A DNA stretch of 64,000 bases from contig CBDCNQ010000004.1 in assembly GCA_965219445.1 (NCBI GenBank), forward strand, positions 160,001 to 224,000, given 5' to 3'. The stretch is from Longimicrobiales bacterium. Its GTDB lineage: Bacteria > Gemmatimonadota > Gemmatimonadetes > Longimicrobiales > Gaopeijiaceae. Shown one piece after another: positions 47,594 through 54,642 of this stretch (its first letter is position 1; each line of letters begins with the position of its first letter). The translations under genes and the position numbers were made by a program. The notes beneath the pieces are model-generated. The model made no database searches. It was given only the letters and a program-made list of their open reading frames with translations, and had not been told where the DNA came from.

Positions 47594-48178
47594 ATGCCGA
47601 TTCCAGCTTTTGACTTTGACGGCGTTCTCCCGCCCTTTGTAGGTGTGCAAGGGCCAGGTGGCGTACCTACAGATATGTCTCCCTACGTCGCCACGGCATT
47701 GGAGGTCGCCAGTGGCTTTGGAGGCACTGCAGGGCGCCGGACCATATTGCGTGGGTGGCTTGGCCATCGAGCCGCGATGCGTGCGGCTGGATTTGACCGG
47801 GGCTTTCAGTGGCTAGACGGCAGCTTCGTCGAGGACAAGGAACCGCGTGATCTTGATCTCGTAACCTTCCTCTACCGTCCGCGGAAGGTCCACGACCCTG
47901 CCGCGCTTACGGCTGTGATGTCCGCAAATCCAGACCTTTTTCTAAGACCGCGCGTTCGTCAAAGGTACAGCCTCGACTCATTCCCGATCGACCTAGATGG
48001 ATCGCCCGAAGGCATTGTCGCAACATCATGTTACTTTCTTGGATTATTCTCCCATCGGCGTGCCGACAACCGTTGGAAGGGCACGATTCAGGTGCGACTT
48101 GAGGATCCCAACGACGACACCGCAGCGTTGGGAGCACTCGATTCAAGCCCAGCGGAGCAAGAAAGGAATCCCCAATGA
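47594..48178 (+). CDS. Pol-beta-fold nucleotidyltransferase-like protein (DUF6932-like)
   Basis: WLDGSF...P.DLDLV motif. Confidence 0.7.
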   Translation: MPIPAFDFDGVLPPFVGVQGPGGVPTDMSPYVATALEVASGFGGTAGRRTILRGWLGHRAAMRAAGFDRGFQWLDGSFVEDKEPRDLDLVTFLYRPRKVHDPAALTAVMSANPDLFLRPRVRQRYSLDSFPIDLDGSPEGIVATSCYFLGLFSHRRADNRWKGTIQVRLEDPNDDTAALGALDSSPAEQERNPQ

Positions 48179-49116
48179 CCAGCCAGCGTAAGTTGGAGCG
48201 CGACCTCCTCCATGCAGATATGGCCGCTGTTAACACGTTGCTGGACCAGCTCGATGAGGAAGATGTGATGACGCGCTTCGGTCTGGAGGCCCGTCGCGAC
48301 GAGCTGCGCGACTTAATCTCGGCGTCGGAGGCGGAGCCGGAGGAAGCAACCGCGTCCGCAATTCTCTTCTTCGGGGGCCGGCCTGTGACCGGAACCCGCG
48401 GGATCGAGAGCGAGTTCGCGTGTCTGGCGGTGAGCAAATTTCAAGATCTCGTCGCAAAGATGACAGCGCAGAAAGCCGGCACTCTTGGTCAACGGGGCGT
48501 GGTGCCGAATAAAGGCTTTTCGACGCTGCACATCACGAACATAACCCGCGGGTCAATCGGGTTTGTTCTGGAGGAAGTGCAACCCCAGACGCAGCACATC
48601 GGCGCGCCGCTTAAAACTTCGGTGAATGAGGCAATGCAGTTGCTCGATGCCTACGGCGAGGCAGACGAAGTGCAATTTCATCACGCCGTCGAAGCGATGA
48701 ATCAGCGCGTGCTTGGCACCACACGAGATTTTTTTGAACTAATGCGCGAATGCGGGGCGACGTTGCGTCTCGTCGCGAACGAGTCGGAATGCAGCCTCGG
48801 CTCAGAGGCCGTCATGCGTGCGGCTGAGCGGGCGAAGTTCACGACGACAGAAGAGGCCGAGGAGATTATCGTAGGCCAATTGGCCGGCGTGTTGCCTACC
48901 GCCCGTCGATTCGAGTTCCGCACCCGTGATGCCCGTGGAGTTATCAACGGGAAGGTCGACAGTGCGCTTACCGCCCATGTGCTCGCCCACCTTGGCCGCA
49001 AATGGGTAGATGTTGACGCGCATGCCCGGATTGTGGTGAAGCGGGTATTTCGCAAGGATGCTGTGGTACGGGAGAGCTACACGTTAATGAACTTGGTGGC
49101 GCCGACTAGCGCTTGA
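48175..49116 (+). CDS. Hypothetical protein translationally coupled to the NTase
   Basis: ATGA overlap; 313 aa, N-terminal coiled coil, beta-rich C-terminus. Confidence 0.75.
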   Translation: MTSQRKLERDLLHADMAAVNTLLDQLDEEDVMTRFGLEARRDELRDLISASEAEPEEATASAILFFGGRPVTGTRGIESEFACLAVSKFQDLVAKMTAQKAGTLGQRGVVPNKGFSTLHITNITRGSIGFVLEEVQPQTQHIGAPLKTSVNEAMQLLDAYGEADEVQFHHAVEAMNQRVLGTTRDFFELMRECGATLRLVANESECSLGSEAVMRAAERAKFTTTEEAEEIIVGQLAGVLPTARRFEFRTRDARGVINGKVDSALTAHVLAHLGRKWVDVDAHARIVVKRVFRKDAVVRESYTLMNLVAPTSA

Positions 49117-49131
49117 GGGCGGAGACATCGG

Positions 49132-49464
49132 TCAACCGCACCAGACCACTCTGCCCTCCCGGAGCCAGAAGTGCGACCGACAGCCGGTACGCCGCCACAC
49201 CGATGGCAAAAGGCTGGGACGACCGCGATGATCGATAGAGAGTGACCATCTTGGCCGCGCTTCGGGCGCGACCAGCAGTTCAATCGTTTCGCCGCATCCG
49301 CATGGGCAGCCCATGCCTATGCTCCAATCCTCCTGATCTTCGCACGTGACGATGAGATCGCGACGTGGCAGGATGGATGGCAGCATATCGCCGTCGATAA
49401 CCCGCATGCGCCGTCGCGGAAGGATCCCTTCCTTGGCATTGCGCCACCACCGGCGCAGTATCAT
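49132..49464 (-). CDS. DUF6527-like Cys/His metal-binding protein
   Basis: CPCGCG, L.PSVW, GCRSHFW. Confidence 0.8.
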   Translation of the reverse strand: MILRRWWRNAKEGILPRRRMRVIDGDMLPSILPRRDLIVTCEDQEDWSIGMGCPCGCGETIELLVAPEARPRWSLSIDHRGRPSLLPSVWRRTGCRSHFWLREGRVVWCG

Positions 49465-50861
49465 GACGGCACCTTGACACCGGGGTTAGCGAGCGCGGGC
49501 AGTCCAAGAAGAGGTTCACGGGCCCCGCAGCCCAGAAGCGGATTGGGACTTATCTCGAAAGCATCCTCGCTGAAAAAATCTTCGTCGCCAGCTGCCAGAC
49601 TAAACTGCGTACGCGCATAGTTGCGATTGGGGTCGAGGCGAAAGGGGTAGGCTCGCAGGATGAACTCATTCATGCAGGCTGCCGCCGCCCGCATGTTTAG
49701 GGAGATTACGGCTGGCGCCTCTTCAATCGCCCCCTTGATATAGCCCGCTTCGACTTCTTGAGCGTGAGCATCAGGCGCCACGGATCGGAGATATTCGGCG
49801 CGCAACCTCTCCGGGGTATAGACCTTGCGATCGCCGAGGGTGGCGCCGCCGGGCTGGACATAGTCGATACGTCCGACCGCGTCGATGATGGCGATGGCGG
49901 ACTCCGCATTTCGGACCGGAATGACGACGCCGACATCGAACAACGGCAACACGAAGGCAGCAGCGATCAGATCGGCTAAATGTCGGGCCTCCAGCGTATC
50001 GACACAGCAGAACATTACATCGCCTTGGCTAGCGGCGAGCACAGCGTCCCGTGTATTGATCGGTGCGATGACCGGGGTGGCGATGCCCGGTCCTCGATAG
50101 GTGGTGATGGCCTCGGCGAAAGCGTCGGACTTGAACCGTCGGGCTACGACGTCCGCCAGCGTAGCGTTAAGGATGCGGTTGAGATTGCGCTGCTTTATGC
50201 GATCGAAATCGATCAGCGTCACGCCACCGAAGCCGAGCCGGGCGGCCTGTTCGGCTTGGATCGATCCCGTGCCGGAAACGCCGATGATGATGGCAGTCAG
50301 CCGCCCGAGTTCGGCGGTCATACCGCTCGTGAAGGCCACCGGGCGTGCGCCTGTCTCCACCGACAAAGACTCGTCGTTCCACCAAAAGTGGATATCATCG
50401 CCCGCGCTGGTTACGAGGTCGACGGGACGCGGAGCCATATCCGAGTCGTAAAGCCGAGCGCGCATGGCACCGCTGGGAATCATGATCGCGGAGCCATGCC
50501 AATCACCATAAGCCTGAAACAGCGATTCGATGGTTATGAGGTCGCTCTTGTCGTCGGCTTCAGAAAAGGCGAACAGCCCGCCGGGATGCGAATGCAGCAG
50601 GATGAGGCAGAGCCCTTCGGCCTCGCCACGATCGATCGCTTCTTCAAGAAACCGGCCGGGCCAAGTGATGGCATCATGCCCCCGATGGGCGCAGGCATCG
50701 TAGGGAATGGGAATGATTTCGCGCACGAGCAGCCGCAGACGCGGGCCCGGTGTCCGGGCGCACAGAAGGATCGTGGCGGCCTCACAACCATCGCCCGGAA
50801 AGAGGTGGCAATGCGCCTGTGTATGAGTCGTCCCGGCCAGCGCGAGAGTCGTCGAAATCAT
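49461..50861 (-). CDS. JAB peptidase-E1 (ThiF) fusion
   Basis: E...LHSHPGG..FS..DD JAB motif; IIGVSGTGS, DFD.I...NLNR E1 motifs. Confidence 0.88.
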   Translation of the reverse strand: MISTTLALAGTTHTQAHCHLFPGDGCEAATILLCARTPGPRLRLLVREIIPIPYDACAHRGHDAITWPGRFLEEAIDRGEAEGLCLILLHSHPGGLFAFSEADDKSDLITIESLFQAYGDWHGSAIMIPSGAMRARLYDSDMAPRPVDLVTSAGDDIHFWWNDESLSVETGARPVAFTSGMTAELGRLTAIIIGVSGTGSIQAEQAARLGFGGVTLIDFDRIKQRNLNRILNATLADVVARRFKSDAFAEAITTYRGPGIATPVIAPINTRDAVLAASQGDVMFCCVDTLEARHLADLIAAAFVLPLFDVGVVIPVRNAESAIAIIDAVGRIDYVQPGGATLGDRKVYTPERLRAEYLRSVAPDAHAQEVEAGYIKGAIEEAPAVISLNMRAAAACMNEFILRAYPFRLDPNRNYARTQFSLAAGDEDFFSEDAFEISPNPLLGCGAREPLLGLPALANPGVKVPS

Positions 50862-51970
50862 TCTCCCACCTCCTTGGTGAGAGCCGCCTCGACCAAGCCG
50901 ATCTGGGACACGACGTTGTCGGTTGCGGGATCCCACGGCGCAGTTGGCCCTCGATGGCGCGACCAGCCATGAAATTCGAAGCCGAGCAGCGTACCGCGAA
51001 GCTGAGTCCTGGGGATAGTGCGGCCCGATGCCAGCGCCAGCGGCGGATACACGTAGAAGCCATAGATCGCCGCCCCCGGATAGGCCGGTGGAATCTCCAG
51101 CGCCAGCATGGTGTGCGCGAGGGTGTAGCCTGCTGGCACCGGAAAGTGCCGGATGAGCAGCCATCGCCGATTAGCATCAACGATCGTCTCCCACTTGAGC
51201 TGGAGGCGGTCGAGATAGGCGGTATCAATGTCCAGCAAACCGAAGTCGCGGCGAGACGCCGGAGGCGCCTCGCCATTGTCGACATTGCGTGGTGTGAGCC
51301 GAAGCTTCTCAATGCCAGGCGTCTCAAGGTCGAGAACATCCGTGAGGCTCACCTCGCGCTTCGTCTTGCCCGCCACCTTGAAGAAGATGTGCCACGGCTT
51401 GCTGGTGTCGAAGCCGGCCTGTTCCATGGCGGCGCTCACGGTAATGGTGCGCGTCGTCACTTCAATCACCACGCCGTGGACGTTGAGCTTCCACGCGGCC
51501 TTGCGGGTGATGAACGATTCGATGCCGTCCATGTCTAGATCGACAAGGTCATCGGCGCCAATGAGCTGATCGGGATAGTCTACCCGCTCCAGATACAGCA
51601 ACTTGTCTGCCGAGATCAAAGCGAGCTTGCGAAGCAGCCCGCCGCTCACAACGCGGCAGGACCAGTCGAAGCGTTGCCCGTCGATTGACAGGAGATAAAC
51701 GCGATCGCTGGCGACGATCACGAAGCGACCGTCATGGTGACGCAGGTCGACGACCTCCTCGAGACGGATGGTCTCGAGCGCGCCGTCCGCGAGGACCTGG
51801 AGGATGATCGCGGTATCGGGGGACTTGAAGCCAGCGGCCCGCGCGAGCTGCGCACCTGTTGGTGTCAGATCATCGATCTTGACGGCTCGGTAGGCCAGCG
51901 TCTCGTCGGCGATGGCGATGCTACGATGGTCTTTACCGCAGCCAAGCGCGGTGTCTGCAATGTCGGACAT
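50858..51970 (-). CDS. Triple ubiquitin-like domain-E2 fusion (Multi_ubiq + Prok-E2_E-like)
   Basis: Three repeats ending V/LDL..(G)..F/L; VDNG junction; P.P.GY, IPP.YP, WSRH. Confidence 0.85.
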   Translation of the reverse strand: MSDIADTALGCGKDHRSIAIADETLAYRAVKIDDLTPTGAQLARAAGFKSPDTAIILQVLADGALETIRLEEVVDLRHHDGRFVIVASDRVYLLSIDGQRFDWSCRVVSGGLLRKLALISADKLLYLERVDYPDQLIGADDLVDLDMDGIESFITRKAAWKLNVHGVVIEVTTRTITVSAAMEQAGFDTSKPWHIFFKVAGKTKREVSLTDVLDLETPGIEKLRLTPRNVDNGEAPPASRRDFGLLDIDTAYLDRLQLKWETIVDANRRWLLIRHFPVPAGYTLAHTMLALEIPPAYPGAAIYGFYVYPPLALASGRTIPRTQLRGTLLGFEFHGWSRHRGPTAPWDPATDNVVSQIGLVEAALTKEVGE

Positions 51971-52011
51971 AAATCCTCCTAAGTGTCGCCGGCTCCATTG
52001 CCGGTGATGCT

Positions 52012-52072
52012 AAATTAGAATAGCTTGCCAAGTACGTCAAGCAGCCTCTTCGCAAGCTTGCTGCGTTTAGCA
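52012..52072 (-). promoter_or_regulatory. Promoter and palindromic operator candidates of the Ubl operon
   Basis: TTGACG-17-TAATTT overlapped by GCTTG-N10-CAAGC; GCAAGCTTGC palindrome at 52052. Confidence 0.5.
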
Positions 52073-52085
52073 ATGGGATATAAGA

Positions 52086-53305
52086 TGAATTGCCTCCGTG
52101 TGGTGGACCCCTAGGTCTCTTGGGAGAAAGGAGTTCAGCATGGGAAGAACGAGACCGGCATACCCACCGGAGTTTCGGGAGCAGATGGTGGCGTTGGTGC
52201 GGGCGGGGAGGAGGCCGGAGGAGCTGGCTCGGGAGTTTGAGCCTTCGGCCCAGTCGATCCGCAACTGGGTGGTCCAAGCTGATCTGGATGAAGGGCGAAG
52301 AACTGATGGGTTGACGACCCAGGAGCGCGAGGAGCTCCGGCGCCGGATCAGCGTAAGAGTTCGTGAGAGCCAATCAGGCGAGCTTCCCGGTGCGGCTGAT
52401 GTGCCAAGTGCTGGGCGTCTCCCCCAAGCGGGTACTGTGCGTGGCGCCGTCGAGGGCCTTCGCCGAGAGAGCGGTCACCAACGGGCGACTGCGTGAGCGG
52501 ATGCGGGAGATCCACCGGTCGAGCCACGAGACGTACGGGCGGCCTCGGATGCAGGCGGAGCTTCGTGACGCGTGCTGGGGGGTCAATCACAAGCGTGTGG
52601 CCCGTCTGATGAAGCTCGAGGGCCTCGAGGGTGCGAGCCGTCGCAGAAAGTGGCGTACGACGAAGCGGGCCAAGGACGTACGGCCCGCCCCGGATCTGGT
52701 CGAGCGAGACTTTCTGGTGAGAGGTCCGGACCGGCTCTGGGTGGCGGATGTGACCTACCGTGCCCACCTCGAGCGGGTTCCTGTACCTGGCGGTGGTGAT
52801 GGATGCCTGGAGTCGGCGGGTGGTGGGCCGGTCGATGGAGACGCACCTGAGGACGGAGCTCATGCTCGGGGCGCTGAACATGGCGATCTGGCAGCGACGG
52901 CCCGAAGCGGTGGCCCACCACAGAGACCTGGCCAGTACACGTCGACCGCCTTCGGGCTGCACTGCAAGGAGGCGGGTGTGAGGCCCTCAATGGCCTCGGT
53001 GGGCGATGCCTACGACAACGCGATGTGCGAGAGCTTCTTCGCCACGCTCGAATGCGAGCTGATCGAGCGGAAGCGGTTGCGGAGCCAGGCTGAGGCAAAG
53101 ATGGCTGTGTTCGACTTCATCGAGGGCTGGTATAACCCGCGACACAGACACTCGGCCCTCGACTACGAGTCGCCGATCCACTTCGAACGGCGGAGTGAGG
53201 CTGCCTTCTACTCCCCCGCCGCGCGGGGGAAGCTCCTCACTTCCCACAGCTAGGGGAGGAGTGACAATCCCAGTTCTTACCTGTCCACTCAAAAGGGACA
53301 GCTCG
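52086..53305 (+). mobile_element. Degenerate IS3-family element
   Basis: IRs sharing GTGGAC/GTCCAC; orfA YPPEFR, orfB WVADVTY and DNA..ESFF with frameshifts and an internal deletion. Confidence 0.88.
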
Positions 53306-53353: not shown

Positions 53354-53737
53354 ATGAGCGATACGCCAGACGTAGGTGCGGGAAAGCCAAATAGGCTAGG
53401 CCAATATCTCAATAGCGTCCGACGCGGTCTTGATCTTTCACTCAGGGACGTCGAAGAAACGACGGGAAAGGAAGTCAGCAATGCCTATTTGAGCCAGCTC
53501 GAAACTGGCAAGATCCGGAAGCCTTCGCCACATATTCTCTACGCTCTGTCTACAGCACTCGCCGTCCCTTACGAGGATCTCATGGAGCGTGCAGGCTATA
53601 TCGCACCGAACCGCGGGAGACCCGAAGGCTCAAAACATGGGAGTGCAGCGACCTTCGCGATCGAGGACCTAACCTCCGACGAGGAAAAAGCGTTGCTTGA
53701 ACATCTCTCCTACATTCGGTGGCAAAGCAACAAATGA
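53354..53737 (+). CDS. XRE-family HTH regulator (CapH-like)
   Basis: LSLRDVE..VSNAYLSQLETG...PSP; RBS GAGGAGG. Confidence 0.88.
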   Translation: MSDTPDVGAGKPNRLGQYLNSVRRGLDLSLRDVEETTGKEVSNAYLSQLETGKIRKPSPHILYALSTALAVPYEDLMERAGYIAPNRGRPEGSKHGSAATFAIEDLTSDEEKALLEHLSYIRWQSNK

Positions 53738-54642
53738 GTCGTCGACCGGACGACTGCTCCTTGAGCTTGGCTCAACTGGCGAAGGTCCGCAAAGAGGCCG
53801 AGCGCTCTCTACGGGAAGCAGATGTGCTCGGCGTCCTGCCGACACCTATCGACCACATCCTCGCTGTAGCGAAGGTAGAGGAGGTAAAGGACAATGTGCT
53901 TGATGAAGGCTTCCTTACCAAAATGCGCACGAAGGCAGGTGGTGGTGCACTCAAGCGAGCTTTATCCAAGGTCATGGGAGTTTTCGACGCCGTCGCTGGC
54001 CTCGTCTTTGTCGACCAGCTTCTGCTGCCGGTAAAGAAGCGATTCGTGACGTTACACGAAGCGGGCCACGGATTCATGCCGTGGCAACGCGCGATGTACA
54101 AGATCGTTGAGGATTGTGCTCAGACACTCGATCCTGAAGCGGCAGATCTTTTTGACCGTGAAGCGAACATGTTCGCCTCGGAAGTGCTCTTTCAGAACGA
54201 TACCTTCTACGACTTGGCTGCGGACGAGAAGTTCGAAATCTGGACGCCGATACGACTTGCGAAGAAGTTCGACGCCTCCCTCTATTCGTCTATCCGCCAA
54301 TATGTCTCAAAGAACGACCGGCGCTGCGTTGTCCTTGTACTACACCCGCCCAAACTTGCTGAAGGCGATGGATTCCGGGCAACGCTTCGACGCGTCATTG
54401 CCTCGAATGCCTTTACGAAGGCATTCGGTGATTATCCCTGGCCGTCAGCCTACACGCCAGATGACCAACTTGGGTGCCTAGTGCCGATTGGCAAACGCAA
54501 ATCATCCGGGAAACGCGAAGTCGTACTCATTGATCGGAATGGAGATCGGCATGAGTGCATCGCCGAGTCTTTCACCCAGACACACCAAGTGTTCATTCTT
54601 ATCCATGCAGTAAAGACACTTGGGCCAGCCGTGGCTTTGTAG
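53734..54642 (+). CDS. ImmA/IrrE-family metallopeptidase (CapP-like)
   Basis: HEAGH and EAN.FA motifs; ATGA overlap with HTH gene. Confidence 0.85.
   Translation: MSRRPDDCSLSLAQLAKVRKEAERSLREADVLGVLPTPIDHILAVAKVEEVKDNVLDEGFLTKMRTKAGGGALKRALSKVMGVFDAVAGLVFVDQLLLPVKKRFVTLHEAGHGFMPWQRAMYKIVEDCAQTLDPEAADLFDREANMFASEVLFQNDTFYDLAADEKFEIWTPIRLAKKFDASLYSSIRQYVSKNDRRCVVLVLHPPKLAEGDGFRATLRRVIASNAFTKAFGDYPWPSAYTPDDQLGCLVPIGKRKSSGKREVVLIDRNGDRHECIAESFTQTHQVFILIHAVKTLGPAVAL

Follow-up and report, generated by a model that had tools for sequence, protein, structure and literature searches.

A Type I Bub operon of a Longimicrobiales bacterium carries a Tyr-Gly variant of the E2 active site

The 64,000 nt stretch of DNA analysed here (the window; contig CBDCNQ010000004.1 of the Longimicrobiales bacterium assembly GCA_965219445.1, positions 160,001-224,000, with all coordinates below given as window positions) contains three genes orthologous to those for the Citrobacter proteins BubAB, BubCD and BubE, the components of the ubiquitin-like (Ubl) conjugation system known as Type I Bub. 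The system itself is known and, the E2 active site apart, the locus is an intact copy of the characterised Type I Bub. In the E2 domain, Tyr303-Gly304 aligns with Asp299-Met300 of Citrobacter, and as Asp299 is regarded as invariant the locus is filed as a variant with the Type I gene complement and not as canonical Citrobacter-type. We regard it as probable that this is a functional conjugation operon of Type I Bub architecture with a variant Tyr-Gly (YG) E2, operating by the six-step mechanism set out below. No description of an E2 lacking the Asp was found in the Bub literature searched, with the journal version of Ye et al. and most subscription papers falling outside that search; the YG E2 may be an undescribed active-site variant, of which a prior mention may exist.

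Type I Bub has been defined by its gene complement, bubAB (Ubl-E2), bubCD (JAB-E1) and bubE (DUF6527) (Ye et al., 10.1101/2024.11.21.623953; here and below, statements on published work refer to the portions of text that were available), and this complement is present at the locus according to Pfam and PDB matches. All three open reading frames (ORFs) are intact, lie on the minus strand and are joined at both junctions (bubAB/bubCD and bubCD/bubE) by ATGA stop/start overlaps read off the sequence. Pfam detected, over curated cut-off, Multi_ubiq and Prok-E2_E in bubAB, Prok-JAB and ThiF in bubCD and DUF6527 in bubE. In a sequence search of solved structures, BubAB residues 15-233 matched the Citrobacter triple Ubl 9d59 (E 5e-64), the E2 matched BubB (9eav, E 3e-27; 9eae, E 2e-26) and BubCD matched 9ea4 (E 1e-152), while BubE had no fold or PDB relative by sequence (best E 0.31). 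The AlphaFold2 model of BubAB had a mean predicted local distance difference test score (pLDDT) of 84.7, below 50 in the linker 230-237, and a predicted template modelling score (pTM) of 0.45; by Foldseek, the modelled third Ubl superposed on 9ea8_B with a root-mean-square deviation of 1.3 A and the modelled E2 on 9eae_C with 1.2 A. Multi_ubiq was scored by Pfam in just two stretches of BubAB, and the presence of three predicted Ubl domains is supported by the full-length 9d59 match and the model. The third Ubl ends in RNVDNG (G233), the E2 motif WSRH comprises residues 336-339, and C11 and C105 are the sole cysteines of BubAB, leaving the E2 domain Cys-free. The first-pass annotation of this DNA had described the overlapping genes, the RNVDNG end, the Cys-free E2 and the order Ubl x3-E2, JAB-E1 and DUF6527 in the same way. 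It had also called the architecture known bioinformatically; known it is, but this understates the published enzymology, which for the Type I (6E.1/DUF6527) system of Citrobacter sp. RHBSTW-00271 includes five crystal structures (PDB 9EA4, 9EA5, 9EA8, 9EAE, 9EAV) as well as in vitro and in vivo assays (Ye et al.).

Regarding catalytic residues, all of those checked are kept except the E2 Asp. In Citrobacter, the JAB peptidase cuts after G229, and conjugation depends on E1 Y370 and on S333/H335 of the E2 (Ye et al.); the proposals of the first-pass annotation that JAB cleaves after the Gly and that transfer goes through Ser agree with these experiments, G233 and S337 being the equivalents of G229 and S333. 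Among the best 120 of 2883 BubCD matches, JAB residues E27, H90, H92 and D103 (Citrobacter E28, H91, H93 and D104) and E1 Y374 (Citrobacter Tyr370) were each found in 120/120; the adenylation residue R229 (Citrobacter Arg227) is present, and residues 287-395 contain no Cys. Conservation in BubE, across 96 homologues, was 96/96 for C53 and C57, 95/96 for C55, S88 and H98, and 94/96 for C95. Among the best 120 of 689 BubAB matches, G233 occurs in 120/120 and S337 in 119/120, and the Ca2+-site residues D34, T36, E66, E72, D89, D134 and E151 (Citrobacter D30, T32, E62, E68, D85, D130 and E147) are kept here and conserved in 116-120/120 each; triple-Ubl filaments (9D59) have been reported to be Ca2+-dependent (Gong et al., 10.1101/2024.11.21.623966). 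In viral contigs, single-protein search returned 0 loci and alignment search one (45%). E1 Y374, the Ca2+-filament residues, the divergent capH/capP genes described below and the Asp-to-Tyr change in the E2 go beyond the first-pass annotation.

The Tyr-Gly pair is shared by a congeneric genome (G007), and codon 303 is covered without differences by contigs of sequencing runs X2, X8 and X10, from three studies, one of which may be the source sample; the contig of a fourth run has five differences, listed without positions. Sequencing error or a private mutation at codon 303 is ruled out by G007, the contigs of the three runs and conservation among homologues and loci. Among the 120 nearest BubAB proteins, counts that contain one 99% near-copy, 112 have Tyr-Gly with His334 and eight have Asp-Met with Asn334; His339 was found in 8/8 of the Asp type versus 29/112 of the YG proteins (otherwise Asn in 76, Tyr in 6 and Asp in 1), while S337 is kept in 111/112 of the latter. 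Among representatives at 50% clustering (best 150 of 455), 137 have letters at both 303 and 337, with Asp at position 303 in 128 (125 with His339), Tyr in seven (two with His339; one of the seven looks like a misaligned fragment), Glu in one and Gly in one, and YG is thus a minority lineage family-wide. The best 80 of 169 genome loci comprise 30 YG and 50 Asp-type loci. S337, W336 and R338 are invariant in both classes, including 30/30 YG loci, whereas His339 is present in 50/50 Asp-type versus 8/30 YG loci and His334 in 3/50 versus 28/30. The E1 Tyr was detected in 29/30 YG loci (L059 has His) and bubE in 28/30, both misses lying at contig ends. Members of the class occur in Alpha-, Beta- and Gammaproteobacteria as well as in an acidobacterial genome. 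The copy in the window retains the canonical His two residues after the Ser (S+2; H339), and lacks the canonical Asp.

Several other E2 types and candidate explanations were encountered. Loci L098, L099, L100 and L102 have another family-E E2 type with the motif PPSGPHV...WQYWSRPHP, in which the Ser is kept, the Asp is absent and the His has moved to S+3, and L060:5890-7062 (+), P0125 and P0152 are divergent YG-type E2s with A/S, T/Y and Q/Q, respectively, at S-3/S+2. The E1 crossover-loop His H366, considered as the missing base in trans, was ruled out as equally common in Asp-type loci. His334 as a Type II-like feature was rejected, as among six intact Type II E2s only three have His at S-3, and aligning the profiles of the two E2 types gave no significant match (probability 0.5%). 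A YG-specific neighbour gene that could be the target was not found among the 80 loci: both classes are accompanied by capH/capP, by the DUF6932 pair and by the IrrE-UvrD gene (see below), and the one neighbour cluster that is confined to YG loci and looks intact (326 aa, from 8 loci) is cut at the locus edge and belongs to a single set of close relatives.

The careful E2 tree, built without the five trait columns and from 126 columns for 81 rows, a small number for that many sequences, required two class changes in all 200 bootstrap trees, and position 339 changes nine times among its 31 YG rows versus none among its 50 Asp-type rows. On a quick E2 tree, where L055 was the lone outlier, a single YG clade without L060 was not rejected (approximately unbiased test, p-AU 0.75), and one or two origins are therefore both compatible. 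By contrast, the Ubl tree, with 80 rows after L059 was dropped, rejected a single YG clade (29 rows, p-AU 0.003), and the E1 tree (76 rows, five dropped) has six class changes, two of them forced. These trees, which are quick and have long branches, suggest E2-domain recombination between operons as the simplest reading.

The proposed mechanism would begin with cleavage of BubAB after Gly233 by the JAB domain of BubCD, releasing a free triple Ubl, possibly forming Ca2+-dependent filaments, and the E2; the E1 would then adenylate Gly233 and hand it on via Tyr374, the E2 would accept the Ubl on Ser337 and pass it to target lysines without an E3, and BubE, as a predicted zinc-binding Ser88/His98 peptidase, would strip the conjugates. 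These four steps have been shown for the Citrobacter orthologue, where BubE weakly cleaves BubA-GFP and strips conjugates in cells in a manner dependent on its Ser-His dyad (Ye et al.), and are predicted here from the conserved residues. Fifth, CapH would repress the operon until CapP, activated by single-stranded DNA (ssDNA), cleaves CapH, as reported for such pairs (Lau et al., 10.1101/2022.04.27.489752), and the operon would therefore respond to DNA damage or phage stress. The sixth step is new: Ser337 would still be the acceptor, with the His-Asp helper pair replaced and Tyr303 (Gly304 making room), possibly with His334, serving as helper, so that His339 would no longer be required in the YG lineage. 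A place for Tyr303 at the active site is suggested by the published position of D299 beside S333, H335 and E1 Y370 (Ye et al., who term both Asp299 and His335 invariant in Type I E2s). K108, at S+2 of the Type II Bub E2, is not needed in vitro (supplement of Ye et al.), which by analogy indicates that the S+2 position need not be catalytic and provides a precedent for losing an S+2 helper.

A number of points weigh against this mechanism. That Y303 or H334 lies near S337 is presumed by analogy with the published D299 placement, and E2 activity of the YG class, including that of this locus, is a prediction from sequence. This copy keeps His339 and could therefore run on Ser-His without the Asp. 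As S333A/H335A is the only E2 mutant, a double one, in the available text of Ye et al., where D299 is never mutated, the Asp and the His may themselves be non-essential and the variant chemically neutral. Invariance of the Tyr is weak evidence by itself, the structural Y297 also being found in 120/120. The in vitro activity of BubE is extremely weak, and Ye et al. first considered a transfer role for it. Regarding biological role, no tested Bub operon protected E. coli from phage in the available text of Ye et al., a lack of demonstrated protection restated in a 2026 paper (PMC13373217), so the antiviral analogy with Bil drawn in the first-pass annotation is not established for Bub; its remark that targets are not established still holds in the available text of both papers. 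In favour of the mechanism, the median pairwise ratio of nonsynonymous to synonymous change (dN/dS, from pairs with a proportion of synonymous differences, pS, of 0.05-0.6 only), at 0.16 for YG E2s (160 pairs) and thus no higher than the 0.29 for Asp-type E2s (158 pairs), fits purifying selection and gives no sign of decay, although the pairs are non-independent and differ in depth between the classes.

Among the alternatives, the likeliest, and one we consider quite possible while leaning away from it, is that the pathway is the same and the YG change chemically neutral, with Ser337 needing no specific helper, residues Y303, G304, H334, R325 and E332 reshaping a target-binding surface and the E2 acting as an exchangeable specificity module. 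Several YG-specific positions (308, 325, 326, 332, 356, 362) surround the motif, the E2 tree, unlike the Ubl and E1 trees, groups YG into what is essentially a single lineage, which suggests domain swapping, and the unmutated D299 leaves room for such a reading; conversely, retention of the S+2 His in 125/128 Asp-type representatives indicates that the His-Asp pair matters in those E2s, and its loss is coupled to the Tyr. It is unlikely that Tyr303 itself is the E2 acyl acceptor, receiving the Ubl from E1 Tyr374 by a Tyr-to-Tyr aryl-ester relay in which Ser337 would be the helper: Phe never occurs at 303 in the 120 nearest proteins, the 80 loci or the 137 representatives, the equivalent Asp adjoins E1 Y370 in the crystal (Ye et al.) and the pathway already has a Tyr ester on the E1, but Ser337 is as invariant in YG as in Asp-type E2s, structural tyrosines such as Y297 can be equally invariant, and the relay is argued from sequence. 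We give equally little credence to a YG E2 that is a non-covalent adaptor or catalytically dead, with Ubl passing directly from the E1 Tyr to the target, or to an operon in decay, as might be read from the lost Asp and relaxed His, the insertion sequence (IS) remnant in the control region and the truncated BREX system next door; three intact ORFs, an invariant S337, the low dN/dS and the spread of the class over several proteobacterial classes and an acidobacterial genome argue otherwise. The E3-like adaptor suggested for DUF6527 in the first-pass annotation, or a Ubl carrier promoting conjugation, is very improbable despite the translational coupling, a Ser/His pair near the Ubl C-terminus that could in principle serve transfer and the weak peptidase activity, as in Citrobacter conjugates form without BubE, disappear with wild-type BubE and return with S92A or H102A (Ye et al.), and the same dyad residues and C4 cysteines, which fit a Ser-His peptidase, are kept here.

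A broader and more tentative idea, which we consider doubtful, is that YG E2s form a third kind of Bub active site alongside the Ser-His-Asp of Type I and the Ser-Lys-His of Type II. Tyr would here replace His-Asp, by activating Ser337 or by carrying the Ubl as an aryl ester, and the E2 domain would be a target-specificity module that travels between Ubl/E1 backgrounds. The Bub pathway's open chemical question is how an E2 without Cys makes a Ser ester sufficiently reactive for transfer. His plus Asp, the answer given in print, has never been tested residue by residue in the text available, and a natural, selected lineage without the pair is a ready comparison, suggestive of an alternative route to the same chemistry. 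If the E2 also picks the target, the proteins tagged by YG and by Asp-type operons may differ, a point relevant to biological role. The YG variant aside, this is an ordinary locus of an already described system.

Features of the locus and its surroundings are collected in Table 1.

Table 1. Features of the Bub locus and adjoining genes (window positions)
Feature	Position	Strand	Description	Basis
bubAB	50858..51970	-	370 aa; triple beta-grasp Ubl (~residues 15-233) and family-E E2 (234-370)	Pfam, PDB 9d59/9eav/9eae/9ea8, AlphaFold model, Foldseek
bubCD	49461..50861	-	466 aa from ATG; JAB peptidase (E27, H90, H92, D103) and ThiF-like E1 (R229, crossover-loop Y374)	PDB 9ea4
E1 crossover-loop Tyr374 codon	49740-49742	-
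bubE (DUF6527)	49132..49464	-	110 aa; C4 zinc site C53/C55/C57/C95, dyad S88/H98	Pfam; role taken from Ye et al. (available text)
Gly233	51272..51274	-	Ubl C-terminus, predicted JAB cleavage site (Citrobacter G229)	alignment, conservation
Tyr303 (TAT), followed by Gly304	51062..51064 (Tyr codon)	-	Asp299-Met300 in Citrobacter	alignment
E2 motif H334-G-W-S337-R-H339	50954..50971	-	S337 = Citrobacter S333, H339 = H335
Divergent promoter region	51971..52085	.	GCTTGAC-N4-TTAGC repeats (candidate CapH operator)	intergenic alignment
IS3-family remnant	52086..53304	+	frameshifted; ends approximate	Pfam HTH_21/rve_3
capH-like gene	53354..53737	+	helix-turn-helix (HTH) repressor	PADLOC capH E 1e-6
capP-like gene	53734..54642	+	IrrE metallopeptidase (HEAGH); ATGA overlap with capH	PADLOC capP E 3e-12
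DUF6932 pair	47594..49116	+	pair convergent with bubE, DUF6932 protein (194 aa) and 313-aa protein	recurrence in 15/80 loci

Regarding regulation, a -35-like TTGACG and an AGGAGG ribosome binding site (RBS) for bubAB were read by eye in the control region, where a consensus promoter scan gave 0 sites, and the bubAB promoter boxes are therefore putative. No RNA data set was listed as holding the locus, which speaks neither for nor against its expression. Divergent homologues of capH were detected in 37/80 loci and of capP in 35/80. The motif GCTTGAC-N4-TTAGC, with one mismatch at this locus, was found within one mismatch in 37/37 capH loci, a count that is partly circular because the motif was drawn from 25 of them, and in 0/43 other loci, which is not circular; this capH-linked operator motif makes induction testable. 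The inserted IS3 remnant separates the likely capH -10 box from the capH RBS, leaving the repeats on the bub side, and is absent from L005 and other aligned intergenic regions. Both of its junctions are bridged by contigs in 4/4 runs; no IS-free joint was listed in the four runs, which does not show its absence. The remnant may alter capH supply. A one-base insertion in capP at window:54025, seen in one contig each of X2 and X8, may stem from a frameshifted capP allele or from the copy of another organism.

The operon lies within window 42314-62503, together with an integrase and part of a BREX system, in DNA that is 95-99% identical to the congeneric G007, compared with 82-84% for housekeeping DNA, and which is thus a recently transferred island; a BubAB match was found in only one of 40 relatives searched. 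This context fits defence or stress cargo, an antiphage role not thereby being established. Attachment sites of the island were looked for and not found, and related integrase modules recur just past the window end. The BREX remnant (window:54656-62545, minus strand) comprises brxL, pglZ type B and a pglX without ~120 N-terminal residues relative to G007, while for the long upstream ORF that G007 carries this genome holds no match. A Mutator-family transposase and a weak CBS-domain gene (window:39375-41561, plus strand) lie just left of the island.

Directly after bubE, the DUF6932/313-aa pair was detected in 15/80 loci (8 YG and 7 Asp-Met), from Alphaproteobacteria and an acidobacterial genome. 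In the window, the pair has weak PADLOC matches to PDC-M63A (E 3e-8) and PDC-M32A (E 0.002); Pfam and further searches gave no known family for the 313-aa protein, a structure search with DUF6932 gave nothing usable and none of the papers listed in the literature search featured DUF6932. At 18/80 loci (e.g. L020:2421-5843, plus strand), a 1140-aa fusion of IrrE peptidase, UvrD helicase and PD-(D/E)XK nuclease has its gene directly upstream of bubAB, on the same strand; in 15 of the 18 loci the genes for a 201-aa protein and for a sigma-like HTH protein come before it. This module is possibly another regulator or partner of Bub operons. In L037:7113-9896, bubCD is apparently interrupted by ~1 kb of extra sequence.

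Compared with known systems, the locus resembles Citrobacter Type I Bub in gene order, fusions, junction Gly, JAB site, E1 Arg and Tyr, the C4 site and dyad of BubE, the Ser, His and C-terminal Lys (K366, Citrobacter K358) of the E2 and the Ca2+-site residues, as well as in its mobile-element location and its association with CapH and CapP, which is common (168/544 in Ye et al.). It differs in having Tyr303-Gly304 for Asp299-Met300 and His334 for Gln330, in an S+2 His that is unconstrained across the YG lineage, and in the IS3 remnant in the capH/bub control region. With Type II Bub (6E.2; BubA, BubBD and BubE, E. coli ZDHYS365) it shares the logic of a Tyr-based E1 and a Ser-based E2, BubE and the lack of a His-Asp pair in the E2, whereas Type II has an E2-E1 fusion (DUF6791, without a match in this genome), a separate Ubl and, according to the available text, no JAB. 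Bil antiphage operons, Type I as well as Type II, likewise have Ubl, E1, E2 and JAB with no E3, and Type II Bil also has a triple Ubl (8u38 match), but, as described in the text available and unlike the locus on each of these points, they consist of four separate genes with a Cys-based E1 (CYS domain) and E2, have no DUF6527 and act on a demonstrated phage target.

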